Translations under genes and position numbers: made by a program
Shown here: in pieces, positions 710-38,269 of the stretch
Layout: every line of letters starts with the position of its first letter
Position numbering within the stretch: the first letter of the stretch is position 1
Virus record (IMG/VR): IMGVR_UViG_3300020042_012023
Span: 1-38,269 of that record
From: a virus
Lineage: Duplodnaviria; Caudoviricetes
Strand: one strand, 5' to 3'
DNA length: 38,269 bases
The notes under the pieces: model-generated
Database searches by the model: none
What the model was told of the DNA's origin: nothing
Seen by the model: the letters and a program-made list of their open reading frames with translations, nothing else

Positions 710-2041
710 ATGAGTCAAACAAGTAACGCCGATGTCTTACAGACATTCAAGCGAGTCTACGGTGACCTGACCAATCTTTTGCCTGATGATTTCCCTTTGG
801 CGAAATATATTCCCTTCTCAGAAAAGCAAAAGGTGGGCGAGAAATATGTTGAAGCCGTAGCCCTAACTAACGAAGTTGGTTGGACTTTATCGGATTCTAC
901 GGATGCGTTTGAGCTCAACCCAGCTATCGCTGGAACGGTCAAACAAACCGAAGTCGTCCCCTATATCACAGTGCTCCCAAGTATTGTGCCATGGGGTGTA
1001 ATGTCGCGAAGTGCTGGAGGAGGCGATCGCGCATTTTTCGATGCTACCAAGTACACAGTTCGTAACAATTTAAAAAGTCATTCTCGTTTACAAGAGACTT
1101 TGAGACTCTACGGAAGGTCTCCATACCTTCTCGGCGCAGTCTCTTATGCTTCCCAAGTATACCGAGGAGTCGCTTTCACGAACGGAACAGGAACTCTACC
1201 TAACACTAGGTTCGGGTCTCTTACGTTCACAAACGGCATCAATGCAGCTGGGAAATATATCCTGTTCGCACCTGGACAGTTTGCAGCTGGCATTTGGCTA
1301 GGCCTGGAAGGGGTCAAGATCAGCCAGGTAACCTCTACCGGTGTGATCCAAGCTTCCGGTAAGCTAGTGGCTGTAGACGCCGCATACGGCATTTTAAAGG
1401 TGGATTTCACCCCTGTAGCGGCTTCCGCGGCTCTCTCTTCCCGACTATGCTTCGAAGGCATGGAAGGTTCTGGAAAAGAGTATTTTGGTTGTGAGTATAT
1501 CCTTACAAAAACCGGAAACCTTTTCGGGATTGATAACACGATCTACTCTTTGTGGTCTGCTAACCAGTTTGACTGCCAAAACCAAAAACTTTCTCTTGCT
1601 AAATTTCAGGAAGCTGTTGCGAATGCAGTCAACAAAGGTGGACTTGAGGGTGATCTTGATGTGTGGCTCAACCCACGCTCTTGGGCGACGATTGCGAGCA
1701 CTGAAGCTGGCCTTCGAGTCTACGACGACTCGTACAAAAAGGGTGAAGCTGAGCAAGGTTTTGAATCTGTAACTTTCTACACCCAAGCAGGGAAAGCTAC
1801 TTTCAGACCCCATCGTCAAATGCGTGAAGGCATTGCGATGGCGATGCATTCTCCTTCCTGGAGTCGCTCTGGATCGGCTGAGGTTTCGTTCCAAGTGCCC
1901 GGAATTGCTCAGGATGTTATCTTTCCTTTGGTCAACCAAGCCGGGTACGCCTTCAGAAGTTTCTCTGATCAATATATCTTCAACCATGAGCCAGCTAAAC
2001 AAATTTACTTCTACAACATTAACGACGAAGCAGCTTCGTAA
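710..2041 (+). CDS. Major capsid protein
   Basis: 443 aa, GGAG SD, follows the scaffold and is followed by a terminator-like hairpin. C-terminus (YAFRSFSDQYIFNHEPAKQIYFYNI) resembles HK97-fold capsid ends. Confidence 0.8.
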   Translation: MSQTSNADVLQTFKRVYGDLTNLLPDDFPLAKYIPFSEKQKVGEKYVEAVALTNEVGWTLSDSTDAFELNPAIAGTVKQTEVVPYITVLPSIVPWGVMSRSAGGGDRAFFDATKYTVRNNLKSHSRLQETLRLYGRSPYLLGAVSYASQVYRGVAFTNGTGTLPNTRFGSLTFTNGINAAGKYILFAPGQFAAGIWLGLEGVKISQVTSTGVIQASGKLVAVDAAYGILKVDFTPVAASAALSSRLCFEGMEGSGKEYFGCEYILTKTGNLFGIDNTIYSLWSANQFDCQNQKLSLAKFQEAVANAVNKGGLEGDLDVWLNPRSWATIASTEAGLRVYDDSYKKGEAEQGFESVTFYTQAGKATFRPHRQMREGIAMAMHSPSWSRSGSAEVSFQVPGIAQDVIFPLVNQAGYAFRSFSDQYIFNHEPAKQIYFYNINDEAAS

Positions 2042-2055
2042 TCCAAGGTCATAGG

Positions 2056-2104
2056 GTCACGCGACCCTTGTATCTCCTTTCAAGGGTTCGCGTGACTAAT
2101 TTTT
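2056..2104 (+). terminator. Intrinsic terminator after the capsid gene
   Basis: Stem GTCACGCGACCCTTG (2056-2070) / CAAGGGTTCGCGTGAC (2081-2096), followed by TAATTTTT. Confidence 0.75.
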
Positions 2105-2117
2105 CAAAAGGTTTTTT

Positions 2118-4928
2118 ATGCCGATAAGCAAAACATGGCCGAGCGGTGGGACCAACCCAACTCCAACAACCTATCAAATCCCGCTCAACACAGAATTAAA
2201 CTGGACTACTCTCACGACTTTCCTGCAAGCATTGGCTGACAGTGCTCAAGGAACCTCGTTTCAAAAGTTTGCGATGCGTAGAGCTATCGCTTCCCCAGTA
2301 GCCGTAGTGGCTACCACCGATTGTATGGTGGTAACAGACCTAACCGTAGCTGGAGCCGTGGTTGTCAACCTCCCAGCTGGAGCAGATAAACAGCTGTATT
2401 TCATCTTTGATGGAAAAGGCGATGCAGCAACCAATAACATCACAATCAACCGCGCAGGTGCAGATACTATTCGCGGCGCGACGAGCATAGTCATAGACCG
2501 CAATTATGGTGGGGTGATTCTTTCCTACAACGCGGCGAGCACAGACTGGAAGGCCTTCGGGCCATTCATCACCCCTGGAGGAGTCATACCGGCTGACTTT
2601 GTGGGTATCCTTCCAACCACAAAAGGGGGGACTGGGGTCAACGGAACCGCGACATTTCCAGGGTCGGGAACGGTCGCGATCTACCCGATATCCCTTACAG
2701 CTGACGTAACTGGGACCCTCCCAGTGGCAAATGGCGGGACAGGCATAACTTCCTTAGGTGCAGGAGTCGCGACATGGCTTGGGACCCCGAGCAGTGCAAA
2801 CTTAGCCTCGGCTGTGACGGACGAGACTGGTTCTGGAGCTTTAGTGTTCGCAACCAGTCCGACACTCGTAACTCCTGCCCTTGGGACTCCGACGAGTGGT
2901 ATCTTGACCAACGCGACCGGACTCCCTCTGACTACTGGGGTGACTGGGACCTTGCCTATAGGCAATGGCGGGACAGGCCAGACGACGGCGAACACGGCTC
3001 TTAATGCGCTATTACCTACCCAAACCTCCTCGGCTAACAAATTCCTACGCACCGATGGGACGAACACCCTTTGGGCGACGGCCACCGGGGGAGCAGGGGA
3101 AGTCAACGCGGTATTGAATGCCTCTGGAGCGGACGGTACAACAGGCTGGACTGGGACCACTGTAGTCAGTGGTGCATCGAGTCCCCTTAATCCCATCATC
3201 ACGACTGCTTTTAGCATAGTCAATGCGGCGACTCCGCAAACATCCACGACCGGTGGGTATTATCCCTTTACCATGCCTACCGGGTTACAGAATAAGAAGC
3301 TGAAGGTTGAGTTTACTTTCACTTCCCCTGCTACCGATGTTTATCAAGTCTCAGTTTACACTGGAACCACGCGCGTCCCTCTGACTACGGATGCGTCCGG
3401 GGTGACAGCACTTCCAGCAAATACAACCGGTAAATTTACCGCGTATTTTGATTCGGATAACACGACAAGCTGGACTGTAGGGGTTACTAGGACAAGTGGA
3501 TCTACAGGCGCAGTGATTATCACCAATGTGATTGTAGGCCCTGGAATACAGCCGCAGGGAGCGGTTGTGGGGGAGTGGGAATCTTGGACGCCAACTGTAA
3601 ATAATGCTGGGTCTAAAACATTTACCAACACAGGATTTTGGCGGCAAGTTGGCTCTTCCATGGAGATGATATTCAAGTTAACAAGTAACAACGTAGCTGC
3701 CGGCGCAGGTGCAGGTGTTTTTCAAGTAAATCTACCTACTGGATATAACATACCAAGTAACTATCAATATCCAATGGCTGTTGGCTCTGCTGGAACATTT
3801 GGCCTCTTAGCAAATAGTCAATTTGATAGAACTGTACAAGTATCTGCTGATACTGCCGCAACCCTAGCCTTTCTAAAACCAGCAACATCTGACTATTATG
3901 CTCAATCTGACCTAAATGTGGCCTATGCGACAGAATTCTACGCACACCTTTCTGTCCCCATCGCAGAATGGGCGGGTGCTGGGACTGTGAACGTGGCGCA
4001 GAATGATGTGGAGTTTGCTTATAATACGAGTGGCGATGTCCCAGCTGGGGACACCACAAGCTTTGGTTATGGTCCAAACGGTGTAGCTTTTGTGGTATTT
4101 TCCGCTGCACAGCAAAAAAGAGTGAGGTTTCAGACTCCGATTCAAGTCGGAGACCAAATACAATTACAGATTAGTGCAGACAGCGGGACGACATGGAGAA
4201 CTGTAGGACAGAATGGGGATTATTCTGGAGCTTATTCAGTTCAAGGTGCAACAGATTATGGCATTGGAGCTATAGCTACAGTTTCTGGTTCGGTTACTGA
4301 TGTAACAGTGAATATTGGGCTGTATCGATTGGCTACTGGAGTTACTTATGGTGCAGCGGGAGCGGCATGGGTTTCTGGTGCTGCAAATAGATGGAGGCTG
4401 GTCAAGTCCTCCGCTGGAGCCGCTGTCGGCTTCGGGATAGTGGTCCCTGGAACTAGCTCGGGGTTAGTGAGTGCGAGTGGGTTACCGGGTAGGACTGACA
4501 ACTCAGTCATAGCGGCTAGCTACGTCGGTGAGGAGGCTGGACAAACAACAGCTTCTGGAGTTACATGGCCAGCATCAGGATCGACTAAAACAGTAACTTC
4601 TCGGATATTCACGAAGGGGTCTTGGCTGGTTTGGGGGGATATAGAATTTGCCTTTGGTTCAGCATATGTCGCTTCAGCTGCATCTAGCGCAAATTTATGT
4701 ATAGCCACTTTATCCACTACAACTGATACATATGTAGACAGCACAAGAGGCTATGCCGGTATTGTCGTCTTTGCGGTAGCAAGTTCTCTTGCTGCACGTG
4801 CTACGACAAGATTAACATTTTTTAGATTCAGTTCAGATACTACTGTTTATGTAACCGGGACTATACATTATACCTCTCAAACAGGTGGAACTATGAACGG
4901 TGCCATAAATGGAATACGTATAGGCTAG
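2118..4928 (+). CDS. Tail fibre / receptor-binding protein
   Basis: 936 aa, T/G/A-rich; repeated GxLPxxxGGTG units and the TGSGALVFATSPTLVTPALGTP fibre motif; modular beta-rich C-terminal half. Confidence 0.8.
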   Translation: MPISKTWPSGGTNPTPTTYQIPLNTELNWTTLTTFLQALADSAQGTSFQKFAMRRAIASPVAVVATTDCMVVTDLTVAGAVVVNLPAGADKQLYFIFDGKGDAATNNITINRAGADTIRGATSIVIDRNYGGVILSYNAASTDWKAFGPFITPGGVIPADFVGILPTTKGGTGVNGTATFPGSGTVAIYPISLTADVTGTLPVANGGTGITSLGAGVATWLGTPSSANLASAVTDETGSGALVFATSPTLVTPALGTPTSGILTNATGLPLTTGVTGTLPIGNGGTGQTTANTALNALLPTQTSSANKFLRTDGTNTLWATATGGAGEVNAVLNASGADGTTGWTGTTVVSGASSPLNPIITTAFSIVNAATPQTSTTGGYYPFTMPTGLQNKKLKVEFTFTSPATDVYQVSVYTGTTRVPLTTDASGVTALPANTTGKFTAYFDSDNTTSWTVGVTRTSGSTGAVIITNVIVGPGIQPQGAVVGEWESWTPTVNNAGSKTFTNTGFWRQVGSSMEMIFKLTSNNVAAGAGAGVFQVNLPTGYNIPSNYQYPMAVGSAGTFGLLANSQFDRTVQVSADTAATLAFLKPATSDYYAQSDLNVAYATEFYAHLSVPIAEWAGAGTVNVAQNDVEFAYNTSGDVPAGDTTSFGYGPNGVAFVVFSAAQQKRVRFQTPIQVGDQIQLQISADSGTTWRTVGQNGDYSGAYSVQGATDYGIGAIATVSGSVTDVTVNIGLYRLATGVTYGAAGAAWVSGAANRWRLVKSSAGAAVGFGIVVPGTSSGLVSASGLPGRTDNSVIAASYVGEEAGQTTASGVTWPASGSTKTVTSRIFTKGSWLVWGDIEFAFGSAYVASAASSANLCIATLSTTTDTYVDSTRGYAGIVVFAVASSLAARATTRLTFFRFSSDTTVYVTGTIHYTSQTGGTMNGAINGIRIG

Positions 4929-4957
4929 CCTACGCTAATAACAAGAAAGGACAGACA

Positions 4958-5299
4958 ATGAACCTAAACCCCATGGTTAAAAATAAAAAGATGGACGCCT
5001 TAAAGGCTCTAATCAAACAAATGTTTGAGTTAGAAGCTAGCGGAGAAAAGGACACAGCTGTAGACATAGGCCAAGAGCTCCATGAATCTATGGAGTCTCC
5101 AGAAGAGGAGAAGCTGGAGCATTTGGGTGGTATCACCGAAGCAGAAGAAAATGCTTCGGAGCCTGAAGGCGAGGACATGAAAGAGACCATGGCCAAATTT
5201 ATGAAAATGTCGGTAAAAACCCCGGTAAAGGGGAAAACCAAGCGCATGATAGGTAGGCCTGATATCGGGAAACCCAAAGAGAAGAAAACTCTAGCATGA
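4958..5299 (+). CDS. Hypothetical protein (acidic centre, basic ends)
   Basis: 113 aa, AAGGA SD, within the virion module. Confidence 0.6.
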   Translation: MNLNPMVKNKKMDALKALIKQMFELEASGEKDTAVDIGQELHESMESPEEEKLEHLGGITEAEENASEPEGEDMKETMAKFMKMSVKTPVKGKTKRMIGRPDIGKPKEKKTLA

Positions 5300-5445
5300 T
5301 TAGATTAAACCTAGGCTGGCTTTTGACTGTACTCATGATTTACATATGTTATGAATGTGCTAAAGCTGGTAGTGTCGAGGACATAAAAGATTGCATGAAA
5401 ACTTTACCAGGCGAAATTTGCATCAAGATGCACAAGGGCTTGTAG
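5296..5445 (+). CDS. Small Cys-containing membrane/secreted protein (49 aa, not in ORF track)
   Basis: ATGA overlap with the upstream stop; MIRLNLGWLLTVLMIYICYECAKAGSVEDIKDCMKTLPGEICIKMHKGL*; fills the gap to the next ATG at 5447. Confidence 0.55.
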   Translation: MIRLNLGWLLTVLMIYICYECAKAGSVEDIKDCMKTLPGEICIKMHKGL

Positions 5446-5446
5446 C

Positions 5447-6397
5447 ATGATTAGTTCAGACGACATTCTAACATCGGTAAAGAGGGCGGTTAGTGTCCCT
5501 GCCAGTCAACCTTTGTTGACCGATGCAGACATGCTATCCCTGGCTGATGAAATTATCGCTTCCAGGATTGTCTCCTTAATCGAGAGTTTCGACTCTGATT
5601 TTTTCCTGAAAAGAACTGTGACAGCAATTGTCGGGGGACAGGATCTATACGATATCCCTTATCGGTCCATGGCTAGAGGGCTAAGAGATATTTGGCTCCT
5701 AGATAACGTGACAAATCGGAGAAACCTCCCACTCATAGCCCTGGAGGACTTGCCACTCTATATCAACTCCACCTATGTTGCTGGATTCTTGTTTCAGGGC
5801 GACCAAATCAGGCTGGTCCCTAGCGTGCCTCCATCAACCACGGCGGTTTCTCTTGAGATTTGGTGGAGACTCCCCCCTAGCAAACTCATAGGGGTGTCTA
5901 CAGCTGGAGTTGTCACAAATATCTCCTACGCTCAAGCAGGGTTTGACCTTGTTACGTTGAGCAGTGTTCCAGCATTCTGCACGACTGGCCTGGAGATTGA
6001 CTTTGTAAGGAAGAAAAGCGGCTCCTCGATTTTAGACTTCGATAAGGTGATTCAGTCGGTCAACGGCAATACCCTCTCTTTTACGGAGGGAGATGTTCCA
6101 GCCTATTTATCGATCGGTGACTACGTTTGCCCCCCTGGACAGTCTCCTGTTTTAAACGATATCCCCAATGAGGCCATAGGCCTGATTCGCTCGCATATAA
6201 CGTACAGAATACTCTCAGCAATCGGTGATTATGAAGCGGCGTCTACTATAAATAAATTTGATATTCCAGCTGAAGAGAAAGACTTCAAGTCCATCATGTC
6301 GCCACGTATTGACGGTGAACCTGTTATCGTGATCAACCGTCGCTCTTTGGTTCGCGGCAATAAATTCTCCCAAAGACGTTGGATTGGACCCCCATGA
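5447..6397 (+). CDS. Head-tail adaptor (tail tubular A-like)
   Basis: 316 aa; helical N-terminus, GQDLYDIP and GDQIRLVP beta motifs and helical C-terminus as in podovirus adaptors; directly precedes the large nozzle-like gene. Confidence 0.65.
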   Translation: MISSDDILTSVKRAVSVPASQPLLTDADMLSLADEIIASRIVSLIESFDSDFFLKRTVTAIVGGQDLYDIPYRSMARGLRDIWLLDNVTNRRNLPLIALEDLPLYINSTYVAGFLFQGDQIRLVPSVPPSTTAVSLEIWWRLPPSKLIGVSTAGVVTNISYAQAGFDLVTLSSVPAFCTTGLEIDFVRKKSGSSILDFDKVIQSVNGNTLSFTEGDVPAYLSIGDYVCPPGQSPVLNDIPNEAIGLIRSHITYRILSAIGDYEAASTINKFDIPAEEKDFKSIMSPRIDGEPVIVINRRSLVRGNKFSQRRWIGPP

Positions 6398-9300
6398 GCT
6401 ACACCTACCCAGAAATTAGGCAGTTTCGTGGGCGGTATGCTCAGCGAAATAGCTTCGAGGTTCCTGATGGAGCCCTGGAAGTCGCTTTAAACGTGACGGT
6501 GGGTAATGATTTCATCATTTCAAAACGCCGTGGTTACTATCGTTATTTCACCCCCATTACCGGAACTCTCAAGGGTCTTGAGAAATACGAACGTACTCTC
6601 ATGGCATTTTATACCGACAAGGTCTCGCATTTTGCCGATAGCGGAACAGCACCCAATGAGGTTGGGAGCGAGACAGTTAACGGCCTGGAAACTGGGGTGA
6701 CGGTATCGATTACAGGCGACCGAGTCCCTAGGACTATGCAAGCCAGTGAGAACCTTTATTTCACGACGATATCAGGGGTCAAGAAACTAACTTCATTTGA
6801 TAGCACGGTAGCCAACGCGAGCTCACCTCCAGGAGCAGACCTGACGGCTGTCTTTGTCCCTGGAAGCGTGGCCAGCTGGTTCGGTCCTGGATTAGCAGTT
6901 TCCTACCGGGTCCTTTTCGGCAGGAAAGATGCGAACGACAATTTAATCCTTGGAGCTCCAAGTGATGTAGCCACAATCGCAAACCCGGCGACCCTTGGTG
7001 TGTCTTACACCTCGGCTGGAGTTGGACCCTATACCGTGACGGTGACGAGCTCTTCTCATGGCATGATCACTGGAAACTATCTCCAGTTTTATGGAGCAGT
7101 GGACCCTGACGCGAATGGGACTTTCCAAATAACCTATGTCGATCCGAATACTTTTACCTATTCTGTATCATCGGGAAGCCCTGGAGCAGGAACTATCAAC
7201 TGGGCGCAGTCCTCAGCTGTCATGCTGGAGACCACTGTCCCAGAAGAGTGTGCGTCGACCACTCAAGAATGGTTTATCCAGGTCTACAGGAATGACCAAC
7301 AGTCCATCACGGTTGACCCTTTAAGCACTTACAAGTTTATTTCCCAACGTGCGCTAACTGCCACAGAGATATCCACAAACGTCCTTTATTTCACCGACAC
7401 GACTCCAGACCTACTTAGAGGCGCGGAGCTCTACACGAATGAAAACACACAAGAGGGGGAAGGACAGGCCAACTACGGCGTGCCAAAGCCTTCGGATATG
7501 TGTTTATTCAAGAATTATGCATTTTATGCAGACTGTGTGATTCATGCCACGATCCGAACGGCCTTGGTCGACCCTACGAAATTAGCAAGTGGCGATATCA
7601 TCACGCTTCGGATTGTGGACATTGCAACAGTCGACGAAGAATACGTCGCTCGCACAGGTGTTGCCAACCAATTGACCTGGACAAATGTAGTCTCAGGCGG
7701 TCCAGCACTAACCATAACCTCAACTGCCCATGGTTTACTGAATGGGGATTTGGTCTTTATTTCCAACATTGTCGGCGGGTCGTATGTCAACCAAGCCGCG
7801 ACGGTGAGCGGAGTCGCTCCTAACACTTTCAATGTCACATTGACCGGTTCAGGGTCGCCTACCAGCCTATTTTTCGAAGGATTAGCCAATACTCTTGGTA
7901 AACCCATATTTAAACTAAGCCAATCGTCTAGTTTTGCAGTTTCTTTAGCCGAGACTGCGCAAGGTCTTGTGAAAGCGATATCCCGAAACCCTGGAGGACT
8001 CTGTTACGGTAAGTATTTATCGGATTTTTCAGCGGTTCCAGGACAAATTGGTATCTTCGCTCGTTATTTCCCCACACAAATTGCACTAATAGCAAGTACG
8101 TCTACAGCTGGCAGTGCATTCAATCCCCCATTGCCCACCTCGTTTGCTTCGGGGACTCAAGTTACTTCTGGGACGGTGAATCAAAAACACCATATATATA
8201 TATCGAAAGTATCTGAGCCCGAAGCTGTCCCCCTGCTCAACTTTTTGCCAGTAGGTTCCGAAAACCAGGCAATTTTAAGAATCAAGGCCCTACGCGATTC
8301 GGTGATTGTTATAAAAGAAGACGGGGTTTTTAGACTTTCTGGTGACTCACCTCAAAACTTTGTGGTGACGATTCTTGACTCGACTGTATTATGCGCTGGC
8401 ACTGACACTGTGAGTGTTATTAACAACCAAGTGGCGATGCTTAGTAATGTTGGTGTTGTATTAATATCTGAGACAGCTGTTAATATAATTTCACGAAAGA
8501 TTGAGGAGGACATTAGACCGATTTTAGGTAGGCCTGATACCCTTTCTCATGGTGTGGCCTATGAGAGTGAGCGGCTTTACATGCTCACCTGCTCAAAGCC
8601 CAATGACCCGACTCTTTCGGTGCTCCATATTTACAATAACCTGACGGACGAATGGACTACTTGGGACACTTTATTTAAGTCTGGGATTGTGGGACCCGAT
8701 GATACTCTTTATTTAGTTGACCTTAATAACTCTATTTTGGTAGAACGAAAATCACAGACTCGTATTGATTATTCTGATCAAAATTATTCCACTTCCATTT
8801 TGTCGGTGTCGCTTGCGGCTACCGACATTTCTTTTTCGCTCGCAGGAGCGATACCGGAAGCTGGAGACATTTTAGTCCTTGGCAATGTGATCAATCGGAT
8901 TAAAACACTCCCAACAATCATCGGTGTGAACCAGTATGCTTGCACGTTACAGGTAGCTACCTCCCTGGTTCCTGGAGATACGCCGATCTTTTATAAGAAC
9001 ATTCGCTCAGTGGTTGGGACCGTCCCTTTTCATGCTGGAGCTACAGGGCGCATGAAGCAGTTTGCACAAACGCAGCTGCATTTCAGGAGCGACCAGTGTT
9101 CCAGGATGGGACTCTTCTTTGTCGGTGACACGTACTTGGGAAGTAATCCTGTAACGTGGGAAGCCCTTTGGAATAGAGCCGGTTGGGGGTATTTCCCATG
9201 GGCTTTTGATTTTTTTGGTCAAGGCAATGGGATTGATCTACCGATCGGAACCTCACCGAGTCCGATTTGCCGTATCTATGTCCCGATCCAGCAACAAAGA

Positions 9301-28626: not shown

Positions 28627-28629
28627 CTG

Positions 28630-29144: not shown

Positions 29145-29156
29145 ACGGGAATTTTT

Positions 29157-29414: not shown

Positions 29415-29442
29415 TACTCCATAAAAATCAAAGGGATACCAA

Positions 29443-29796
29443 ATGTCAACTTTTCGCGACGGCTACTTAGATCAAGGCCAACCCCTCGGGATGCTTCCGC
29501 AAGATGTGCTTCTTATCGCTGACGACACTCCTGTGATTCTAAACCCCAAAACTGCGCTGTTGCGACTCCGGTCGAATGACACGACCGCGGCGAACCGGAC
29601 ATTCACCCTCCAGCCTGGATATGTCGTGGGTCAGGAGCTCGTCATTGTGTTCACAAGTGGAGCCGCAACGGCAGCACAGCTCCTGAACGCCGGAACAGTG
29701 GCTTTAAGCGCGGCGTGGGCACCGACCCTCAATGATACCCTCCGGCTCGTCTGGACGGGCTCTATATGGGTAGAAACGGCTCGCAGCGATAACTGA
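29443..29796 (+). CDS. Putative beta-rich virion protein
   Basis: TFTL.PG...GQEL...DTLRLVWTGSIWVETARS resembles fibre/decoration domains. Confidence 0.45.
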   Translation: MSTFRDGYLDQGQPLGMLPQDVLLIADDTPVILNPKTALLRLRSNDTTAANRTFTLQPGYVVGQELVIVFTSGAATAAQLLNAGTVALSAAWAPTLNDTLRLVWTGSIWVETARSDN

Positions 29797-30296
29797 TGGC
29801 TGGCCGAGGTAGACCACGCAAACCTGGAAGCCCGATCCCCAAGCCAAAGCCCGAGGTATGCGACCTTGAGCTCGCTGACCCGGGTAATCCTTTTGTTGCG
29901 CATAAAGAGAGTGATGCATTCCAGGGTTCAAAGTTTCAACCCGGCCAAGCTGGGTGTATGGGCTCAACACCTGGAATGCTGACTCCCATCATGATTCGCA
30001 GGTTACTTAGCCGGATGTGGAAGATGAATCGCTGGCAGCTGCAAAGGCTGGTCGAGGACCCCCAAACCAGCATGGGGGAAATCACTTTAGCCGCGATACT
30101 TGTGAAAGCGGCTGGAGATGGGGACGTGCAAAAGATCGAGTTTGTGCTAAATAGGATGATAGGCAAGGTTAAGGCGGCTCAAGAAAAGCCCGAACAACTC
30201 GACGAATTGCGGCTTATCCCTACAGAAAAGATCCTGGAGCTACTTGACTCTTTACCCAAAGATGTGATGAATGTGACCCCGAAAGAAGGTGCTTAA
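29796..30296 (+). CDS. terS: Probable terminase small subunit
   Basis: GRGRPRK AT-hook, KFQPGQAG, and L.KA..GD....EF.LNR..GK as in DUF5681-type TerS proteins. Confidence 0.65.
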   Translation: MAGRGRPRKPGSPIPKPKPEVCDLELADPGNPFVAHKESDAFQGSKFQPGQAGCMGSTPGMLTPIMIRRLLSRMWKMNRWQLQRLVEDPQTSMGEITLAAILVKAAGDGDVQKIEFVLNRMIGKVKAAQEKPEQLDELRLIPTEKILELLDSLPKDVMNVTPKEGA

Positions 30297-30484
30297 AATG
30301 TTTGTACAAATAGCTGATAATTCTTACATTAACAGTGATCATATTGTCACAATTGAATCGCCTCAAGGATTTACTGTAAGGATAACTTATGCTGATCTTG
30401 AGGTATTAGATTATGTCATACCAGAGGAATATTGGGACTCGTTTTGGCAGTGTGTGAGGAATCAGAAGTAACCCCGAAAGAAGG
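30276..30484 (+). repeat. 14-bp direct repeat ACCCCGAAAGAAGG flanking a small ORF
   Basis: Exact copies at 30276-30289 and 30471-30484. Confidence 0.8.
30289..30471 (+). CDS. Small hypothetical protein
   Basis: MFVQIADNSYINSDHIVTIE; AT-rich; true start may be ATG 30298. Confidence 0.55.
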   Translation: MLKMFVQIADNSYINSDHIVTIESPQGFTVRITYADLEVLDYVIPEEYWDSFWQCVRNQK

Positions 30485-30584
30485 GGTGCCTTAGGTTCTA
30501 TTTCAAAGCGGTTTAAAATTGAGTTAAACTGGTTTGTCTAAGACACAAAAGATGGTTAATCGAATCGAGAAAGAAAGTCAATAG

Positions 30585-30779
30585 ATGCAATTTAAGGTTT
30601 TTAGGGGTGACTTAAAAGAGGGGCGTAAGCGACTGCTATTAACTCCAGGTGAGAGCATAATAATAGTTCACATGCAGATAGAGAATTTTGGCGATAAAGA
30701 TATTCTTATAGAGTTCGATCAAGATTATGTTTTAGCAACATCTCCAGACTCTGAAAATCATATTCGGGTAAAAAAATAA
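30585..30779 (+). CDS. Hypothetical protein
   Basis: 64 aa in an AT-rich small-gene cluster. Confidence 0.5.
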   Translation: MQFKVFRGDLKEGRKRLLLTPGESIIIVHMQIENFGDKDILIEFDQDYVLATSPDSENHIRVKK

Positions 30780-30809
30780 TGATCACGATATCAGCGCAGG
30801 AAAGTCAAA

Positions 30810-31019
30810 TTGAAAACTATCGATAAAATTAAAGCCGCTAGAGAAGCCCTTAAAGTGTCTTGTTTTAAATATAAAGATATTGAAGTGATATATAATGAGG
30901 ACGATAGTTTTAGTCTGTCTTATAGTCCTTCACCTTTAGGTGTAATTAGAGTCGAGAGCGAAAGCATGATAGCAATAGCCGACTGGGTTTTATGTTTATT
31001 CATCGATGATGGGGAATAA
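30810..31019 (+). CDS. Hypothetical protein
   Basis: 69 aa, TTG start with AGGA upstream. Confidence 0.5.
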   Translation: MKTIDKIKAAREALKVSCFKYKDIEVIYNEDDSFSLSYSPSPLGVIRVESESMIAIADWVLCLFIDDGE

Positions 31020-31022
31020 CAA

Positions 31023-31271
31023 ATGGACACTATGAGCCTATTAGAACGTCTTAGGCAGTTAGTGAACGACCCTGAAAACTGCGCCATTTCAGATGTTGAA
31101 GTAGCAGAAGTGTTTATATCAGTTTTGCCTAAACTGTTGGCTATAGTAGATATTAACAGGCTGATGATAGGTGCCTCCTGTCCAGAAGCTTACAATGCTT
31201 ATGGGGTGAGGCTAGTAGAGGCACTTCGAACACTTGAGGAGATGGGGAATAGCAATGGCACCACGCTTTAG
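31023..31271 (+). CDS. Hypothetical protein
   Basis: 82 aa, GGGGA SD. Confidence 0.55.
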   Translation: MDTMSLLERLRQLVNDPENCAISDVEVAEVFISVLPKLLAIVDINRLMIGASCPEAYNAYGVRLVEALRTLEEMGNSNGTTL

Positions 31272-33273
31272 CAAGATCATGTCGAAAATGCAGGATGAAG
31301 AGGACATTCCCGCGGATATCCCAAATCCCGAGATGATGATGGAAGAGCCTTCCACAATGCCTTGGGACAAGCCCTTCCCCCCTGGAATAGCGGCGCAGGA
31401 GGCTTTCGACGACATGCTGACGCGGAGGGTCGTAGACCCACTAGCCCAGGCTGGACACCCAGACCTAGGTGCGGGGTTTGCGGCGATACCCAGTGCAGCG
31501 CATAGCATGATAGTGCCTCAGACTGAGTTTGATGTAGCGGGGACAATCATCCCCTTGCCTGGAGTCGCAAAGGCGATGAAAGCGGGGAAGTTTAGAAAGA
31601 TTCGCAATGCGATGAAGGCTGAGGACCCTGAGAATGTGGCGGGTATTGTTGCGAAGCAAGCGGAGAAGCATGTTCCCGAGGCTGATAAGCTGGCTAAAAA
31701 AGAATATGACGAATATATGAAGGGGGAATTGGCACCTAAAGCCGAAGTCAGGGATATCGACGCGAAGGTAGAGGCATCAAAGGCTGAAGCGGTGCCTAAG
31801 CACCCCCAAGGCGAGCGGTTAGATCGAATCAAAAAAAGCCTGTCTAAAATTGACGACTTGATGAAGCAGTTAAAAAGCCTTCCAGGTTCAGTCGAACCGC
31901 CAAAGAGTGAGCTTTCAATCCTTGAAAGGATATTATCCAGGTTTGACGAACCAGAAGCGGAAAAACTGCGCAGTGTGATCAAGCGGGACTTGGATGCATT
32001 TGAAGGTGGAAATACTTATATTGGGGAAAACTTCCACAAGCCAGTCTGGCAAAAACCAAACGCGGAATATGTGCAGCCCATACCAGTCCCTCCAGAGTAT
32101 TTAGACAAAGTGGGCAATCATGTCGGCAAAAACATCATGTATGGTGGGAATGACCCATTCCAATGGCTAGATACCAAATACGGTGCATCCAAGGCTTGGT
32201 TGGAGAAAACTACAGGCCAACCTCGTATAATTGAAACGCAGAGCGATTTGATTGCCCATGCTGATTATATGGACAAGCTTACTGATCAAGATAAGGTCAT
32301 TTTTCATATTTTAGGCGATGATAATCGTATCAGTCGTGTGTTAATGCCAGGTGTTCCAAGTCAGGCACGAGTTATACAGGCAGCGAAAAAACTGGCTGAC
32401 AAGGGGATAAACGTAACGATAAAAAGACATAACATACCTGGAAGAAAACCAGACAAATCTAGCCAAGTAATCCCAGACGGTATATGGCAACAAGATGAAT
32501 ATTTGCGACTAGATCCAGAGCAAATAAAAGCGATCAGTAAAGTTGGCGGCCATGATTTTTTTAACAGTCCAGTCATTGATGCTGATGTTGCGCCTATAGT
32601 TAATCAAGGCAAAGACATGGCGCGAAAAGAATACGAGGACATTTATGATTTCAAGCCTCGATCGATACCCGACCCCCCCAAGCCTCCCAAAGGCGACCCC
32701 GAAGCCTCGCTGCGCTTCCCTGGAATACAGTCTCAGATGGACGTAGCCCCCTCTAGAATGGACGAGACTGGGAAGGCCTTTGGAGATGTAGGGCAGAGTG
32801 AGTTTCTGCCTGATAACAGGCCACAGGTGATCAGGGAGGACGTGCCTAAGAGGAATTATGTCGAGAGTGAGATGGGCAAGCCAGTGTCAGAATTGACTGG
32901 GGGATTGAAGCCAAGCCAGCTGCAAAATCCACTATTCAAGTATTCGGTAAATCCGATGATTGATGATTTAAAATCTAAAGCACAAACAAGGCAAACCTAC
33001 GGTGAGCTTTCTTATGGGGAAGAAGTCAAGGCAGCAAAGTCAAAACATGCGGCTACAAGGCTTCAAAACCAAATGTACAAAGGCCGTCCCTCCCACGAAG
33101 CGGAGCAAGCGAAGCTTTTTCCCAAGGTGAACGAGGCGGTGAAGGGGAGGCCTGAGTCAGTCAAAAAGCTGTTTCAAAAACCCGATGGCTCGTTAGTTGA
33201 CGAAAATGGTAACGTGGTCATGACAGCGGAAGAATCTGAGCGATTAATGTATGAAAAACTAAAAGACTTCTAA
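31255..33273 (+). CDS. Multidomain protein with a Cys-less radical-SAM-like (SPL/Rv2578c-type) core
   Basis: GG.NDPFQWLD.KYG...IIETQSDLI...D..ISRVL.PGVPS..R.IQAAKKLADKGINV matches the barrel motifs of SPL-like radical SAMs by eye; there is no Cys in the protein; start taken at ATG 31255. Confidence 0.6.
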   Translation: MAPRFSKIMSKMQDEEDIPADIPNPEMMMEEPSTMPWDKPFPPGIAAQEAFDDMLTRRVVDPLAQAGHPDLGAGFAAIPSAAHSMIVPQTEFDVAGTIIPLPGVAKAMKAGKFRKIRNAMKAEDPENVAGIVAKQAEKHVPEADKLAKKEYDEYMKGELAPKAEVRDIDAKVEASKAEAVPKHPQGERLDRIKKSLSKIDDLMKQLKSLPGSVEPPKSELSILERILSRFDEPEAEKLRSVIKRDLDAFEGGNTYIGENFHKPVWQKPNAEYVQPIPVPPEYLDKVGNHVGKNIMYGGNDPFQWLDTKYGASKAWLEKTTGQPRIIETQSDLIAHADYMDKLTDQDKVIFHILGDDNRISRVLMPGVPSQARVIQAAKKLADKGINVTIKRHNIPGRKPDKSSQVIPDGIWQQDEYLRLDPEQIKAISKVGGHDFFNSPVIDADVAPIVNQGKDMARKEYEDIYDFKPRSIPDPPKPPKGDPEASLRFPGIQSQMDVAPSRMDETGKAFGDVGQSEFLPDNRPQVIREDVPKRNYVESEMGKPVSELTGGLKPSQLQNPLFKYSVNPMIDDLKSKAQTRQTYGELSYGEEVKAAKSKHAATRLQNQMYKGRPSHEAEQAKLFPKVNEAVKGRPESVKKLFQKPDGSLVDENGNVVMTAEESERLMYEKLKDF

Positions 33274-33291
33274 TAAAGAAAGGAAGCTACC

Positions 33292-33369
33292 ATGACTGAA
33301 GCTACTGGGGGATTTTGTGTGGATCGGATGAAAAAAAAGCCTAAGCCGAAACCAAAACCAAAGTGCTGA
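33292..33369 (+). CDS. Basic micro-peptide (25 aa, not in ORF track)
   Basis: AAGGAAG SD; MTEATGGFCVDRMKKKPKPKPKPKC*. Confidence 0.5.
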   Translation: MTEATGGFCVDRMKKKPKPKPKPKC

Positions 33370-33414
33370 AATAACCGTGTAAAATACTCACGAAATAGGG
33401 GCGAGTGACGAAAC

Positions 33415-33600
33415 GTGAATAAGGGAAAAATTAACGATATGAACGCAAAGACGTACAACGTGCAAATCGAGTATTTAGGACAGGAATTTTTTACTGTGGA
33501 AACGGAAAATGAATCGGACGCTAGATATATAGCGCTTAAGGAATTTAGAGTCCGAAACCCGGAGGGGGACATACAGTCTGTTGAGGTTGATGAAGTATAA
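33415..33600 (+). CDS. Hypothetical protein
   Basis: Y.V.......VE.ENE.DA...A pattern of small phage early proteins; start may be a later ATG. Confidence 0.5.
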   Translation: MNKGKINDMNAKTYNVQIEYLGQEFFTVETENESDARYIALKEFRVRNPEGDIQSVEVDEV

Positions 33601-33641
33601 CATAAGGAGCACTGGCTATGCCTTAAGGAAAATGTCTCAAC

Positions 33642-34034
33642 GTGAAAATAGAAAGCACAGACAGGACACTCAAGATAATCGATGACTTTGGAAGGCAGAG
33701 GTTTTTTGTGAGCGACGAATTATACGACGCAGTTAAATTTGAAGGCGGGATATCAAAAGAAGAGGAGGAGAGTTTAGAAGTCTATGGAAAGAATCAATGC
33801 GCTATAATAGACATAATTAAAATAGAAAAGAAGTATAAGTTTTTAAGCGAGCTCGCTTCAAAGTATGGTGAGCTAGCGCATGAAGTTAATAACCGTATAG
33901 AGCTCACAAAGATGATGGACCCTGGAGCTATCGCTATCGCAGTCCAGCTGTTACAGAGTAGCTTTGGACTCATTGAAAAGGCGGCTTTCCAGGTGAAAGA
34001 GGACGAAGACGAGCCAGAGGAAAAGATGTGGTAA
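33642..34034 (+). CDS. Hypothetical protein
   Basis: 130 aa, GTG start. Confidence 0.55.
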   Translation: MKIESTDRTLKIIDDFGRQRFFVSDELYDAVKFEGGISKEEEESLEVYGKNQCAIIDIIKIEKKYKFLSELASKYGELAHEVNNRIELTKMMDPGAIAIAVQLLQSSFGLIEKAAFQVKEDEDEPEEKMW

Positions 34035-34122
34035 TAATTACAGCTAAGTCCTAGTTGTTAGACGTCTAATCCTTAGACACCTACTCATAATGTAACCTAG
34101 CGATATTTCTAGGCTACAGGGA

Positions 34123-34138
34123 TGGCATGGGGTGTGCA
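34123..34138 (+). promoter_or_regulatory. Candidate sigma54 (-24/-12) promoter
   Basis: TGGCATGGGGTGTGCA has GG-N10-GC spacing, close to TGGCACG-N4-TTGCW; intergenic, 45 bp before ATG 34184. Confidence 0.5.
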
Positions 34139-34183
34139 ATAGGGGTAGTACCTGGCAATGTCGCTGGGCACTAGGGAAAAAAC

Positions 34184-34504
34184 ATGACAAAGAAAATCAC
34201 ATTAGAATTCACAAACTCCGAAATCACCTGGCTCTACTTCCAAGCTTGCGAAACCTTCTTAAAAAATAGAGTGACTATGAGTTGGTTCATTCCGTTGAAT
34301 CTAACCGGCAAAGACATACTGGCTAGGCAAAAGAAGGCTAAATACTACCTGTATTGGTGCAAAAACATCGTAGACGCTAAGATGCTCGTCGCTGCATGGG
34401 GGTTAAAAGAGTACGACATTCTCCTCGATACGAGGGACGAGGACGATGGGGAGATATCGTTTGTGGTTTGGTGTAAAAAGCCTTTGCGATCGGCTAAGAA
34501 ATGA
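34184..34504 (+). CDS. Hypothetical protein
   Basis: 106 aa, AGGGA SD; has its own candidate promoter and downstream hairpin. Confidence 0.6.
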   Translation: MTKKITLEFTNSEITWLYFQACETFLKNRVTMSWFIPLNLTGKDILARQKKAKYYLYWCKNIVDAKMLVAAWGLKEYDILLDTRDEDDGEISFVVWCKKPLRSAKK

Positions 34505-34506
34505 AT

Positions 34507-34532
34507 ATCACGTAGTATATATACTACGTGAT
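34507..34532. terminator. Perfect 26-bp palindrome between convergent genes (probable bidirectional terminator)
   Basis: ATCACGTAGTATA|TATACTACGTGAT. Confidence 0.6.
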
Positions 34533-34538
34533 TTATGG

Positions 34539-35588
34539 TTAATCCAATTGGTCACTGTCCTCGTTTCTCTGCCTAAAATACGCTCTTATCTGATCCCGTA
34601 GTTTAAGGCTCCGCTCGTCGTCGTGATCTACTAATTGCCATAGCCCTTGTGAGTCCATTTTGAGGTCTCGCACTGGGTCGAAATTATTCTCTTCGAGGAT
34701 ACGCCAACGGTCCCAGTATAATCTCCGAGACTTCGGTCCATGGTATGAATGTGCAATGACTCCGGGGACATAGCCTATATTCTTGCGAATATATTTGAGA
34801 GCTAGCTTCTCCCACGACGAGACACTTTCTTTGTATGCGCTGGTCACTTTCCCGCTCACTCCCTCGGAGGCGCGACCCAAAAACGAAAGTGCCATATGGT
34901 GGTCCCCGGCTCCCAATACAGCAGTGCTGAGAAGTCCACCCATGCGCTCAAAGGCTCCGCGTCTCCACCCCCAAGCAAACCCTGGATGCCAGTAGATAAG
35001 CTTGTCCTGGATGCCGTATTTGTGCTTTGGATTGGAGAATCTTTTGGGGTTTAATTTCCCATCATGGTCGGTGAGCGGGGGAATTTTTGTATTAGCTAGT
35101 TGATTGTGATAGCAGTATACAAAACCGTGGTTAGTGCCCACTGGATTTAAAGCTGGATGGGGTCCGATATCTAAGGCCATGTGAAAAAGTTGGATTACGT
35201 CATATGTTTGTAGTTGCTGGACACTTTCGTGTAACCAGTCCTCGCGCATGAACGTAACATCAGCATCTATGACTAAAACATACTTCCAGTCTGGAGGGAG
35301 CCTATTTACAGCGAGATTGAGCATATTTTCTTTGTGCCAAAGCTCAGTCCTGGTAGTCAGCTGGAGGGTATTTGGTTCACCCTTAATAGTCACTTCGAAA
35401 GGCCTATCTCCCACGGCGACTTCAACCGTGTAGAGGTTGGCACCTGAAGCGGCCATATGGTGCTTAAATCGCCGGTAGAGGTTATACCTGGACTTGAACC
35501 TAACCACGTTACTGATGCAAGTGATCACCCAGCATTTGCTTGTGTCAATCGGGGTCAAGTCAGTCTTTAAGATACTGTTAATATCCAC
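34539..35588 (-). CDS. GT-A fold glycosyltransferase-like protein
   Basis: WHKENMLNLAV..LP..WKYVLVIDAD (DxD), HPGFAW..RR..F..MGGL, GAGD, H.YHG. Confidence 0.7.
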   Translation of the reverse strand: MDINSILKTDLTPIDTSKCWVITCISNVVRFKSRYNLYRRFKHHMAASGANLYTVEVAVGDRPFEVTIKGEPNTLQLTTRTELWHKENMLNLAVNRLPPDWKYVLVIDADVTFMREDWLHESVQQLQTYDVIQLFHMALDIGPHPALNPVGTNHGFVYCYHNQLANTKIPPLTDHDGKLNPKRFSNPKHKYGIQDKLIYWHPGFAWGWRRGAFERMGGLLSTAVLGAGDHHMALSFLGRASEGVSGKVTSAYKESVSSWEKLALKYIRKNIGYVPGVIAHSYHGPKSRRLYWDRWRILEENNFDPVRDLKMDSQGLWQLVDHDDERSLKLRDQIRAYFRQRNEDSDQLD

Positions 35589-35645
35589 AGGCTAGGCCCT
35601 CAAAAAGATTTTGGAATAATGAATATTGTATGCTAATGTCTGCGC

Positions 35646-37052
35646 ATGCAGCAAGCAGTGAGCGAAAGAGATTTGAGAAATGCCCTTTGGAGTCGCGGCG
35701 AGCTCGCATACAAGCTTGATTCGCTCCAAAGACGTATATCGCAGACCGTCCGAGAGAATGCCCACTCTCGGAAGGTCTGCATCCTTTCGTCTCGGCAAAT
35801 CGGCAAGACCTATTGGGCTTGTGTTTTTGCCTTAGAATATTTGTTGAAGAATCCAAAGAAAATTGCGCGAGTTATTGCACCCACTTTTAAACAGTGCCAA
35901 GACTTGGTCAATGACAACCTGAGCGTGATCCTTGCAGACTCCCCAGAAGGCCTACTTAGACGAGCTAAGACCGAATATCGATACAACCTATTCAATGGGT
36001 CGTCGCTTCGCTTAGGAGCCCTGGAGAGGGCGTATGTAGACGGCAATCGAGGAGGCAATGCATCACTGATCATCTATGAAGAATGCGGATTTGTGACTTC
36101 GGATGATTTTAATTATGGTGTAGACTCGGTCATGGGTCCCCAGCTCCTCCGCTCCCAAGGAATGGAAATTTTCGTCTCCAGCCCTTCCGAAGAACCTGAT
36201 CACCCACTTCACACGCGGGTTCTTCCTGAAGCAGACATGTTGGGGACCCTATTTCAATACACGGTATACGATTCGCCTAGTATCTCCGAGATTATGATTG
36301 ATGAAGCGGCGAGGAGATGCGGGGGGAAGCATACCGACGCGTTTAAGAGAGAATACCTAGCTCAGATAATCAGGGTCATGTCGAAAGTCATTATCCCTGG
36401 ATTTAATCCTGCTAAACATGTGAAAGAGTTTGACCTACCCACCCCTGCTCACATTCAGTTAACAGCCGACTGGGGGGGGACCAGAGACATGACTGTTGCT
36501 CTAGTCCATACCTACGATTTTATCCACAATCGGCTACTTATATGGGATGAAAAGGCCTTCCCCCCGAATACACCAAGCGTGCATATAAAGAAGGACCTGG
36601 ATACCTGGAACCATGTCTGGTTTTCAAAGCATGCTGACGTAGCTGGACAAACTCTTATCGACCTGTATGAGCTAGGCACCGAGTTTACGACCCCACCTAA
36701 GTCAGACTGGTTAGCTACAGTGCAATCAATGTCAAACCTCTTTGAGATGGACCAAATCTGGATCCACCCAAGGTGTAAATTCCTAATCCAGTCCTGTAGA
36801 GCCGGGGTCTTTAACAAAAATCGAACGGATTTTGAAAGACTTCCCGAGATTGGCCATTGTGATGCGTTAGCGGCTTTGATGTATGCTAACAGGGTCCAAG
36901 AAAGGTCCAATCCTTACCAACGTGACGACTTGGTTAATAACGAAAAGATATTTATTTGGAACCACAAAAAAGAGAGTGAGCAGGTGACCCTGGAGTCCAT
37001 GATACCTGCCAATAAATTCCCTGGACCTACTCGATTTGGAAAGTTTAGATAA
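35646..37052 (+). CDS. terL: Terminase large subunit
   Basis: SRQIGKT Walker A, VIAPT, LIIYEECG Walker B variant, VSSP coupling motif, F.REYLA, nuclease ADWGGTRD and HCDALAAL.YA. Confidence 0.93.
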   Translation: MQQAVSERDLRNALWSRGELAYKLDSLQRRISQTVRENAHSRKVCILSSRQIGKTYWACVFALEYLLKNPKKIARVIAPTFKQCQDLVNDNLSVILADSPEGLLRRAKTEYRYNLFNGSSLRLGALERAYVDGNRGGNASLIIYEECGFVTSDDFNYGVDSVMGPQLLRSQGMEIFVSSPSEEPDHPLHTRVLPEADMLGTLFQYTVYDSPSISEIMIDEAARRCGGKHTDAFKREYLAQIIRVMSKVIIPGFNPAKHVKEFDLPTPAHIQLTADWGGTRDMTVALVHTYDFIHNRLLIWDEKAFPPNTPSVHIKKDLDTWNHVWFSKHADVAGQTLIDLYELGTEFTTPPKSDWLATVQSMSNLFEMDQIWIHPRCKFLIQSCRAGVFNKNRTDFERLPEIGHCDALAALMYANRVQERSNPYQRDDLVNNEKIFIWNHKKESEQVTLESMIPANKFPGPTRFGKFR

Positions 37053-37435
37053 TGGCAAAAATCACAATTAGTCGGATCTTTGAGACAGCTAGAGCATTGT
37101 CAACCGATGCAGGGACTCAGCTACAGGATTTTATCCAGTTCCAAGCCTCGTTTGCTGAAATCACAATTAGGGCTTTGCGCAATGGCCTAACTGATGAAGA
37201 CAACACCGACTGTCAGGTTAGGACTGTGGATCTAACGGACAATGTCCCCTTGGTGCTCGGAGTCGAAAAGAAAAGGGCGAGGGAAGTGAGGGTTCGTAGG
37301 GTCGTGAGCTCGACGACCGCCTTGTCGGCTCCCTTGGCATGGGGGTTTGCAAATAACGGAGCCGTGACTATGACTGCAAAGTTTTCTCCAGCACCGACTG
37401 CGCCGGTCACCGTGGAAATAATAATACTTTACTAA
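37052..37435 (+). CDS. Hypothetical, probably virion-associated protein
   Basis: 127 aa coupled to terL; helical N-half, beta C-half. Confidence 0.55.
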   Translation: MAKITISRIFETARALSTDAGTQLQDFIQFQASFAEITIRALRNGLTDEDNTDCQVRTVDLTDNVPLVLGVEKKRAREVRVRRVVSSTTALSAPLAWGFANNGAVTMTAKFSPAPTAPVTVEIIILY

Positions 37436-37494
37436 ATCGCAAACTTAGTCGTATAGTTTTCGGTAACTCCAACCAATTGGCGAGGCCAAAAACT

Positions 37495-38269
37495 ATGACC
37501 GAATCTGCACTAGGCAGTGGTGGTGCGTCCGACGTTGTATCGACCCCCCAAGCTGAACCTGTAGCTCCTCCTCCATCTCGTTTCCGCGTCCCTGTCGACG
37601 GTGAGGAGTTGGAAGTGGACCTGGAAGAACTAAAGCGCGGCTACTCCCATGGGAGGGCGGCGTCTAAGCGCATGCAGGAAGCTGCGGCAATCCGTAAGGC
37701 TGAGGAGGCCAGGAAAGAGCGAGCCTCTAAAGGGGACTTCTCATGGCTCCAGGAGTATGGGGTCCCTAAGAATGATGTGCTCAAGTGGGCAGAAAAGGAG
37801 CTCCTGGAGCTCATAGAGTTTGAAGCCTTGCCGGAACCTGAGAAAAACTACAGGACTGAAAAGCAAAAGAGAGAGGCTTTAGAAAAACAACTTGAAGAGT
37901 TATCGGCTAAAGAGCGTGCCCAAGTAGAACAGCAAATAGCCGATAAAGCCTTTAGCGAAATTGACGACGAGATAGCGAAGGCATTAGAATCTTACAAGGG
38001 TAAAAAAACACCAAGACTTATACGCCGCGTCGCCGAAGCCATGTATGCCAACCTGGAGAAAAACCAGGAGCCACTTCCAAGCACCAAAGCGTTAGAGCGA
38101 GCGAAAGCAGGTTTGAGCGAGGACATTCAGGAATATCTGAACACGTCCACGCCGCAAGATGTGATTAAGCTTTTCAGTAAAGAACAGATGGCCGCTCTTA
38201 GGAAACACTTTGTTGCGGAAGCACAAGAAGGAAACCCCTTCACTCGCCAAGCCTCAGCGAAGCCTGGAA
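37495..38269 (+). CDS. Capsid scaffolding protein, 5' part (continues across the junction to 198; ~283 aa total; missing from the ORF track)
   Basis: Hand translation from ATG 37495 gives MTESALGSGG...RFRVPVDGEELEVDLEELKRGYSHG... with no stop to the end, in the same frame as 13..198. VDGEExEVxLEELxxGY plus a charged coiled coil upstream of the capsid gene is typical of podovirus scaffolds. Confidence 0.8.
   Translation, partial: MTESALGSGGASDVVSTPQAEPVAPPPSRFRVPVDGEELEVDLEELKRGYSHGRAASKRMQEAAAIRKAEEARKERASKGDFSWLQEYGVPKNDVLKWAEKELLELIEFEALPEPEKNYRTEKQKREALEKQLEELSAKERAQVEQQIADKAFSEIDDEIAKALESYKGKKTPRLIRRVAEAMYANLEKNQEPLPSTKALERAKAGLSEDIQEYLNTSTPQDVIKLFSKEQMAALRKHFVAEAQEGNPFTRQASAKPG
38149..38269. 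repeat. Terminal direct repeat, copy 2 (circular assembly overlap)
   Basis: Exact copy of 1-121. It lies inside an ORF that stays in frame across the junction, so it is more likely an assembler overlap than a physical terminal repeat. Confidence 0.97.

Follow-up and report, generated by a model that had tools for sequence, protein, structure and literature searches.

CCTGGA, a selected and replication-polarised word in a tailed-phage genome, and a predicted primase as its candidate reader

Why does a phage genome carry one short non-palindromic word several times more often than its base composition predicts? The question is raised by the IMG/VR record IMGVR_UViG_3300020042_012023 (Duplodnaviria; Caudoviricetes), a 38.3-kb phage genome (38,269 nucleotides, analysed in full and referred to here as the window) with a P22-like portal, a terminase, ERF, a resolvase, a primase and a helicase. 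A first-pass annotation had estimated about 65 CTGGAG and about 30 CTCCAG sites on the plus strand, where 16-19 would be expected; exact counting gives 66 and 31, a total of 97 against 16.8, together with 246 occurrences of the core CTGGA/TCCAG that it had called frequent. Its suggestion of a binding site stands, as the excess is real, acts at the DNA level and is maintained. What it lacked is the CCTGGA core, the origin-linked polarity and a phage primase as reader: the word is more structured than had been described, being both selected and polarised with replication. We propose, with a probability of roughly 0.6, that CCTGGA is kept by selection as the site at which the phage's predicted primase, a protein resembling RepB' and pRN1, primes the lagging strand.

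An excess beyond codon choice and restriction avoidance

Gene-level word counts cover the 45 open reading frames (ORFs) of the window, 35.6 kb in all. Within them CTGGAG occurs 95 times against 28-32 after synonymous-codon shuffles (z 13-14) and CTGGA 241 times against 101-114 (z 15-18), so that the excess stays with protein sequence and codon usage fixed, and it persists when the codon-junction base is held in the shuffles. Explanations from codon usage, codon pairs or Gly-rich proteins, the last of which had been named earlier as what would refute the signal, are ruled out by these shuffles together with the recoding model described below; the dipeptides PG, AG and SG are only ~2 standard deviations high. 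The most enriched hexamer is CCTGGA/TCCAGG, with 114 sites, found in genes 111 times against 27-33 in the shuffles, approximately fourfold above the need of the encoded proteins, and with CCTGGAG and CCTGGAA as its favoured extensions. When avoided words are modelled, CCTGGAG stands at 44 against 14 and the other three NCTGGAG words jointly at 51 against ~39; CTGGAG is mostly a shoulder of the real word, CCTGGA.

As the several frame contexts listed in the first-pass annotation had indicated, the word is present in all three frames and on both strands. The flanks of CCTGGA add little consensus, with a weak bias at -3 only; a longer or bipartite consensus and paired inverted sites were looked for, and none was found. 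Among the local features described earlier, the minus-strand cluster at 22050-22575 has 4 sites against 1.3, and three AT-rich gaps have 0, 0 and 1 against 2.0, 2.9 and 3.0 at the genome mean, each being weak alone. Literature searches found no report of CTGGAG over-representation in phages or of CCTGGA as a methylation motif.

The window also avoids many words, with ~80 hexamers under a quarter of expectation and CTGCAG, CTCGAG and ATCCAT at 0. A synonymous recoding model was fitted with codon and trinucleotide weights, 264 under-represented 4-6-mers being penalised. As a null it favours the idea that synonymous changes collect passively in safe words; it raises CTGGA to 150±11, CTGGAG to 53±6 and CCTGGA to 43-44±6, and accounts fully for AGCCGC. 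Against this null, CCTGGA (111 vs 43±6) is the top residual hexamer (z 11), in all frames and on both strands; restriction-site avoidance supplies passively about a fifth of its excess. Avoidance itself is strong and often concerns asymmetric words (GCCCC 4/62, CCCGT 7/49, ATCCAT 0/20, GATGAC 1/20, CACCAG 2/21), and each relative has its own avoided set, CACCAG, CAGCAG, GAACTC and GTAC words being avoided in many of them. The palindromes CAGCTG, GAGCTC and GATATC are 2.6-3.6-fold enriched amid avoided one-off neighbours; modelling leaves CAGCTG in excess (36 vs 18.5), and most of the clade is rich in GAGCTC.

Related records were gathered by capsid, portal and terminase searches, and many of them have one dominant residual word each, which is their own (Table 1). 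The core CTGGA of the window recurs in the records G001 and G002 and, as CTGGAG, in L098, and other relatives bear other words. The clearest evidence of maintenance comes from G005 and G007 (92.6% identical), in which CCTGAC is the best retained of 1038 hexamers (39/43 vs 29.5) and its four-fold positions differ at 1/50 against a background of 17.8% (p 7e-4; rank 1/74). CCTGAC is thus kept where it stands in these genomes; its flanks diverge normally, and better local mismatch repair near it is ruled out. Between the window and G001/G002 retention is high; four-fold sites of the window and its nearest kin are near saturation (identity 0.35-0.39).

Polarity relative to the putative origin

The iteron array was taken as the origin of replication, and genomes were divided into a right (R) and a left (L) arm, each with its plus and minus strand. 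An iteron array stands at the same place in all the relatives examined; the iteron sequence differs in nearly every one, the inverted layout being kept (window, G001-G008, G011 and G014), and G001 and G004 have the same iteron and different genome-wide words. In the window, observed and expected counts of CCTGGA are 42/10.6 for R+, 13/9.8 for R-, 29/10.4 for L+ and 27/12.4 for L-. The word is enriched in three of these four classes and not in R-, a deficit that ranks first among 76 words. Pooling of five genomes, each with its own word (window, G001, G002, G004 and G005, with G002 a fragment of assumed full length), gives 156/72, 63/72, 151/85 and 145/81 in the same order (p 2e-10, uncorrected for the choice of word per genome or for kinship). 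G007, which is too near G005, and G006, whose origin is off the contig, stand outside the pool and go in the same direction. Relative to the putative origin, the word is enriched on the putative lagging-strand templates, with R+ and L- up and R- not; L+ is also up.

Over the first three eighths counted from the origin the minus strand has an excess of 0.65-0.76, over the left half one of 1.2-2.2, and the best step lies at 0.5 genome from the origin (likelihood ratio 27.7; five genomes pooled, five step positions tried). Without the arm split the polarity of the whole genome is modest (71:40), which first counted against a directional signal, a judgement reversed by the arm split. R+ sites are evenly spread, with 13 short gaps against 31.2 expected in the five genomes, and 41 of the 83 synonymous opportunities for the word on R+ of the window are used. 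The site that had been noted in the origin spacer does lie inside the iteron array, but no relative has its own word at that place; a conserved priming site in the origin was not found in four relatives.

Table 1. Features of the window and dominant words of related records
Feature or record	Position	Strand	Remarks
CCTGGA genome-wide word	115..38268	+ 73, - (TCCAGG) 41	111/114 in genes
CTGGAG/CTCCAG sites (66 + 31)	1014..38058	both	46 of these are CCTGGAG
Putative replication origin	28364..28626	.	11-nt iteron in two arrays of opposite orientation (6 + 5 copies), directly following the helicase gene
CCTGGAG between iteron arrays	28468..28474	+	position not conserved in relatives; possibly incidental
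Approximate antipode of origin	9000..9800	.	minus-strand enrichment of the word switches on; putative fork meeting zone
Predicted archaeo-eukaryotic primase (AEP), 264 aa	25865..26659	+	catalytic D62/D64, H93, D138; C-terminal helix bundle; proposed reader of the word
Helicase-like protein (DUF5906)	26702..28324	+	Pfam E 5.4e-6, just below curated cut-off
ERF annealing protein and Sipho_Gp157/'Mu Gam-like' gene	21775..23117	-	relevant to the Chi explanation
Major capsid protein	710..2041	+	query used to find relatives
G001, G002			word CTGGAA/CCTGGA
L098			word CTGGAG
G004, G005, G007			word CCTGAC(A)
G006			word (C)CTGGCA
G008			word ACCGCAC (53 vs 6)

A predicted primase and competing readers

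The protein encoded at 25865 matches a PHROG DNA primase family (E 8e-10), its AEP catalytic residues are conserved across 43 homologues, and its structural model (pLDDT 95) retrieves RepB' in Foldseek (E 9.8e-4). The N-terminal domain aligns with S-2L PrimPol (Z 8.8, root-mean-square deviation 3.9, 130 aligned) and the C-terminus with the helix-bundle region of pRN1 (Z 6.2, root-mean-square deviation 2.8, 70 aligned). The fold scores are middling, but AEP primases head the list for each of the two domains, which leads us to predict an AEP primase with a helix-bundle domain. The neighbouring helicase-like protein we take to be SF3-type; no DNA polymerase match was found among the window ORFs.

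If this protein reads the word, two forks would start at the iterons and converge close to the antipode, and the lagging templates would be R+ and L-. A one-way stage running rightward (e.g., rolling circle) would add L+, and R-, which alone is unenriched, would never serve as a lagging template. The predicted primase would start lagging-strand primers at the CCTGGA template site. By chance a six-letter site would be expected every 1.6-1.9 kb of template strand; because such a site is rare, selection would raise its density until one is found per 430-680 bases. The primer would begin with a copy of the constant 5' CCT; recognition by the primase would rest on the variable 3' part (GGAG, GACA, GGCA or AT in relatives), which would shift as the primase diverges.

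In this regard, comparison of the sequences suggests that the word variants broadly follow the AEP primase groups. Primases with a common word are 52-59% identical and those of different groups 35-45%: the primases of the window, G001 and G002 (57-59% identical; clade 100/99) go with CTGGA, those of G004, G005 and G007 (52%) with CCTGAC, and that of G006 with CCTGGCA. The record G014 has this primase (34% identical) and lacks this capsid family; an unguided ranking of its lagging-template words puts the 5-mers GCCTA and CCTAT on top (R+ 38/24.5, R- 6/11.9, L+ 23/24.9, L- 21/11.6). In MW202458, which was picked up solely through its similar primase, the top residual 5-mer is CTGGA (121/87). The lagging-template words of the family start with CCT and vary after it. 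G010, G013 and the cultured Silvanigrella phage introduced below have no sharp word and no match to the window's primase. BcMCM, TthPrimPol and human PrimPol are described in PMC8718748 as recognising 5'-CCTG-3' and starting inside it, with the helix bundle reading the priming site, and for NrS-1 polymerase PMC10250227 gives a template consensus 5'-TTTGGTTA-3'. Whether a widespread family of small phage AEP primases reads long (6-7 letter), fast-evolving words, each phage having its whole coding sequence rewritten so that the lagging templates bear the word of its own primase, is a more tentative proposition, to which we give slightly less than even odds.

Several observations weigh against a primase as the reader. 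Most known primase sites have 3-4 letters. G003, G016 and G019 have the primase family with a weak or unclear word; G003 and G008, which are unpooled, show no R- deficit, and MW202458 shows no origin switch. Even spacing is seen on R+ alone (L- 21 vs 25.8; none for L+ and R-), and the L+ enrichment requires an extra one-way stage, under the primase and the Chi model alike. The G005/G007 test has other words, though few, that approach CCTGAC (0.03), and single sites of the window are shared with G001 and G002 no more than control 5-mers (log odds ratio 1.4 and 1.0 vs 1.8 and 1.3), so that sites turn over and are regained. The word ACCGCAC, common to G008, G009 and both phages of G011, adds to these difficulties: the AEP primases of G008 and of G011 phage B are only 29% identical, the word is enriched in G011 phage A, which has a TOPRIM primase (12 vs 2.3), and it is absent as a signal from G016 (2 vs 2.1), whose primase is 36% identical to that of G008. 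This pattern fits a word set by the host, though on another branch.

Two side observations concern these records. Across G008 (L047-L048), G009, G011, G012 and G018, ACCGCAC is up to ninefold enriched; these span three capsid branches and include an unrelated phage with another primase type, and the word may be host-set. Additionally, G011 (L104-L107) consists of two different phages joined via a common 3.5-kb module, 94% identical between them, with homology to window genes near 18691-20041.

The alternative that survives best, which we hold unlikely, is that RecBCD or AddAB of the host reads the word as Chi, with copies built up in the fork direction for broken-fork repair and on the plus strand for open-end protection or recombination, related words mirroring related hosts. 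A Chi-like signal was among the first suggestions made for this genome, and the replication-linked polarity of the word keeps it in contention: a maintained, over-represented, non-palindromic 6-7-mer co-oriented with forks has the geometry of Chi too. The word also looks similar to the Chi of H. influenzae, G(G/C)TGGAG, and ACCGCAC is common to two unrelated phages of G011 with non-homologous primases. Phages with a recombinase and without an inhibitor over-represent Chi, with a median observed/expected ratio of 2.5 in the account of PMC3784561; beside ERF the window has a Gp157/'Gam-like' gene, which may count on the other side. Known Chi-rich phages, as far as PMC12315714 describes them, carry Chi 20:3 or 32:0 on one strand, with the sites of LLS clustered at one end, a one-strand, end-clustered layout not shared by CCTGGA, which is 73:41, evenly spread and present at one site per 340 bp. 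The recombinase itself is swapped within the clade (L032, L034, L043 and L035), with RecT in G003, G004 and G006 and ERF in the window, G001, G002 and G005.

The distribution of words among close relatives bears on Chi as well. Chi is reported in PMC8022716 to be conserved across enteric bacteria, but the word here varies between phages with 84% identical capsids: relatives with 83-86% identical capsids and 73-88% identical genes in the 17144-21043 module carry different words with a similar avoidance profile. The Jaccard index of avoided words with the window is 0.23 for G005, which has another word, against 0.25 for G001 and 0.15 for G002. The avoidance profile serves as a proxy for the restriction pool of the host, one weakened by common ancestry, and a relative with a similar profile and a different word makes it doubtful that the motif fingerprints the host, as had been suggested at first. 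Two Bdellovibrio phages have no such word in common; in phi1422 and phi1402, CTGGA is not kept after modelling (133/137 and 39/37). A title-level literature search turned up no paper naming a Chi site in Bdellovibrionota.

The closest cultured relative of the window is Silvanigrella phage MWH-Nonnen-W8red 1 (capsid 43%, terminase 31%), and the host is therefore probably a member of the Bdellovibrionota. Scans of bacterial genomes found no host of the phage, and the records G011 and G012, searched for host DNA, hold none. A direct scan with the primase found nothing, and a search with the protein encoded at 19048 found no unrelated phage with a close copy. In two low-share sequencing runs only 40/287 differences are visible, too few to polarise, and they gave no evidence on habitat.

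It is improbable that another replication-linked reader is involved, whether the phage helicase instead of the primase, a polar translocase for which the word is a signal, or a host system that uses it for primosome assembly or helicase loading. What the strand pattern establishes is no more than a tie to fork direction, and the primase and helicase genes are adjacent, travel together and are indistinguishable here; however, the CCTG core matches the PrimPol template motif given in PMC8718748, and even spacing at 0.4-1.3 kb fits priming.

Quite improbable, too, is a host methylase site, either amplified through biased repair of the Vsr/HIP1 type or kept as a methylated self-mark as in DISARM-like systems. 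CTGGAG resembles Type IIG/BREX motifs, and other CCNGG words are ~twofold depleted with CCTGGA spared; moreover, DISARM is reported in PMC9142583 to be repressed by methylation. However, the methylase and short-patch-repair ratchet put forward in the first-pass annotation predicts depleted transition neighbours, and these stand at 0.91 (TTGGAG), 1.27 (CTAGAG) and 1.04 (CTGAAG) of expectation. The C-to-T patch-repair neighbours of CCTGGA are likewise not emptied (CTTGGA 1.2, TCTGGA 1.4, CCTGAA 1.1, CCTAGA 0.75). Depletion at positions 3 and 6 falls on the synonymous positions of Pro-Gly and is unrepeated in G004, G005 and G008; an adenine-methyl ratchet, considered for the depletion at these two A:T pairs, was rejected on the same grounds and because the neighbours keep avoided CCNGG. 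A duplex mark predicts no origin-linked strand pattern, and the ratchet explains neither this pattern nor the even spacing. No methylase match was found among the window ORFs, and N6/N4 methylases occur in G003, G006 and G008 (scan of 37/84 unmatched ORFs).

Least of all is the word to be expected from a passive sink, in which dozens of restriction sites are avoided and synonymous changes collect in a few safe words: five of the hexamers below a quarter of expectation are neighbours of CTGGAG, and fitting the avoided words takes the expected CTGGA count from 94 to 150 and that of CTGGAG from 26 to 53, besides explaining AGCCGC, but as a sole cause the sink is refuted by the residuals of z 7-11 that outlast the modelling of avoided words, it predicts neither the slowed loss (1/50) nor the strand-by-arm pattern, and G008 has few avoided words yet the sharpest word (53 vs 6).

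Neighbouring genes, implications and known systems

Some other genes deserve mention. The window encodes at 31255-33273 a 672-aa protein with a conserved N-terminus, whose middle part is weakly similar to PA0069-type radical SAM proteins (E 0.0025-0.012) and lacks cysteines. On the minus strand, 34539-35588 encodes a 349-aa protein with no family match, in which a DAD motif suggests a GT-A glycosyltransferase; it is 86% identical in G001 and has no match in the other relatives compared. Two tandem CAP/SCP-domain genes at 23152-24111 are retained in most relatives, and G001 encodes an Acb2/Tad1 anti-defence protein (L027:796-1038).

If CCTGGA is a priming site of the predicted primase, a whole phage genome would have its synonymous sites shaped by selection on the density of Okazaki priming, sequence alone would allow prediction of primase specificity and replication mode in uncultured phages, and matched pairs of primase and word would be ready for a simple oligonucleotide assay. 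If, additionally, the primase family reads long words of its own, specificity, origin, fork directions and the mix of theta and rolling-circle replication would be readable from the genome alone, and CCTGGAG, CCTGACA, CCTGGCA, CCTAT and ACCGCAC would form a natural series for mapping the recognition code of the helix bundle. Should Chi be the answer instead, the words would supply candidate Chi sites for a group of bacteria that is probably the Bdellovibrionota. Either of these readings corrects the idea that such an excess is a mere fingerprint of host restriction or methylation.

Among known systems, the template-motif AEP primases are the nearest: pRN1 ORF904 (5'-GTG-3'), NrS-1 (GTGA/GTGG), BcMCM and TthPrimPol (5'-CCTG-3') and RSF1010 RepB'. 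Like the mobile-element AEP primases outlined in PMC8718748, and as its fold suggests, the phage protein would combine an AEP domain and a helix bundle beside a helicase and an origin; like the BcMCM/TthPrimPol motif in the same source, its proposed word is short and asymmetric, with the same CCTG core. In contrast to the motifs of those enzymes, the word here has 6-7 letters, is found genome-wide at synonymous positions, is origin-polarised and differs between sister clades, and the phage primase is 5-16% identical to solved AEP primases, is without a fused helicase and is known here from sequence and model. Similarly to Chi in lambdoid phages (Bobay 2013; LLS, P. aeruginosa MD8, 2025), the word is selected, asymmetric, orientation-dependent and accumulated by the phage; phage Chi, however, lies almost wholly on one strand (end-clustered in LLS), occurs at ~0.2-0.5 per kb and is identical to the host's word, whereas CCTGGA lies on both strands in the left arm, evenly spread at ~3 per kb, and is clade-specific. 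With cyanobacterial HIP1 and the Dcm/Vsr bias it has in common the over-representation of a short word in all reading frames, but HIP1 is a palindrome tied to methylases, and CCTGGA is asymmetric and strand-polarised, with transition neighbours that are not emptied.

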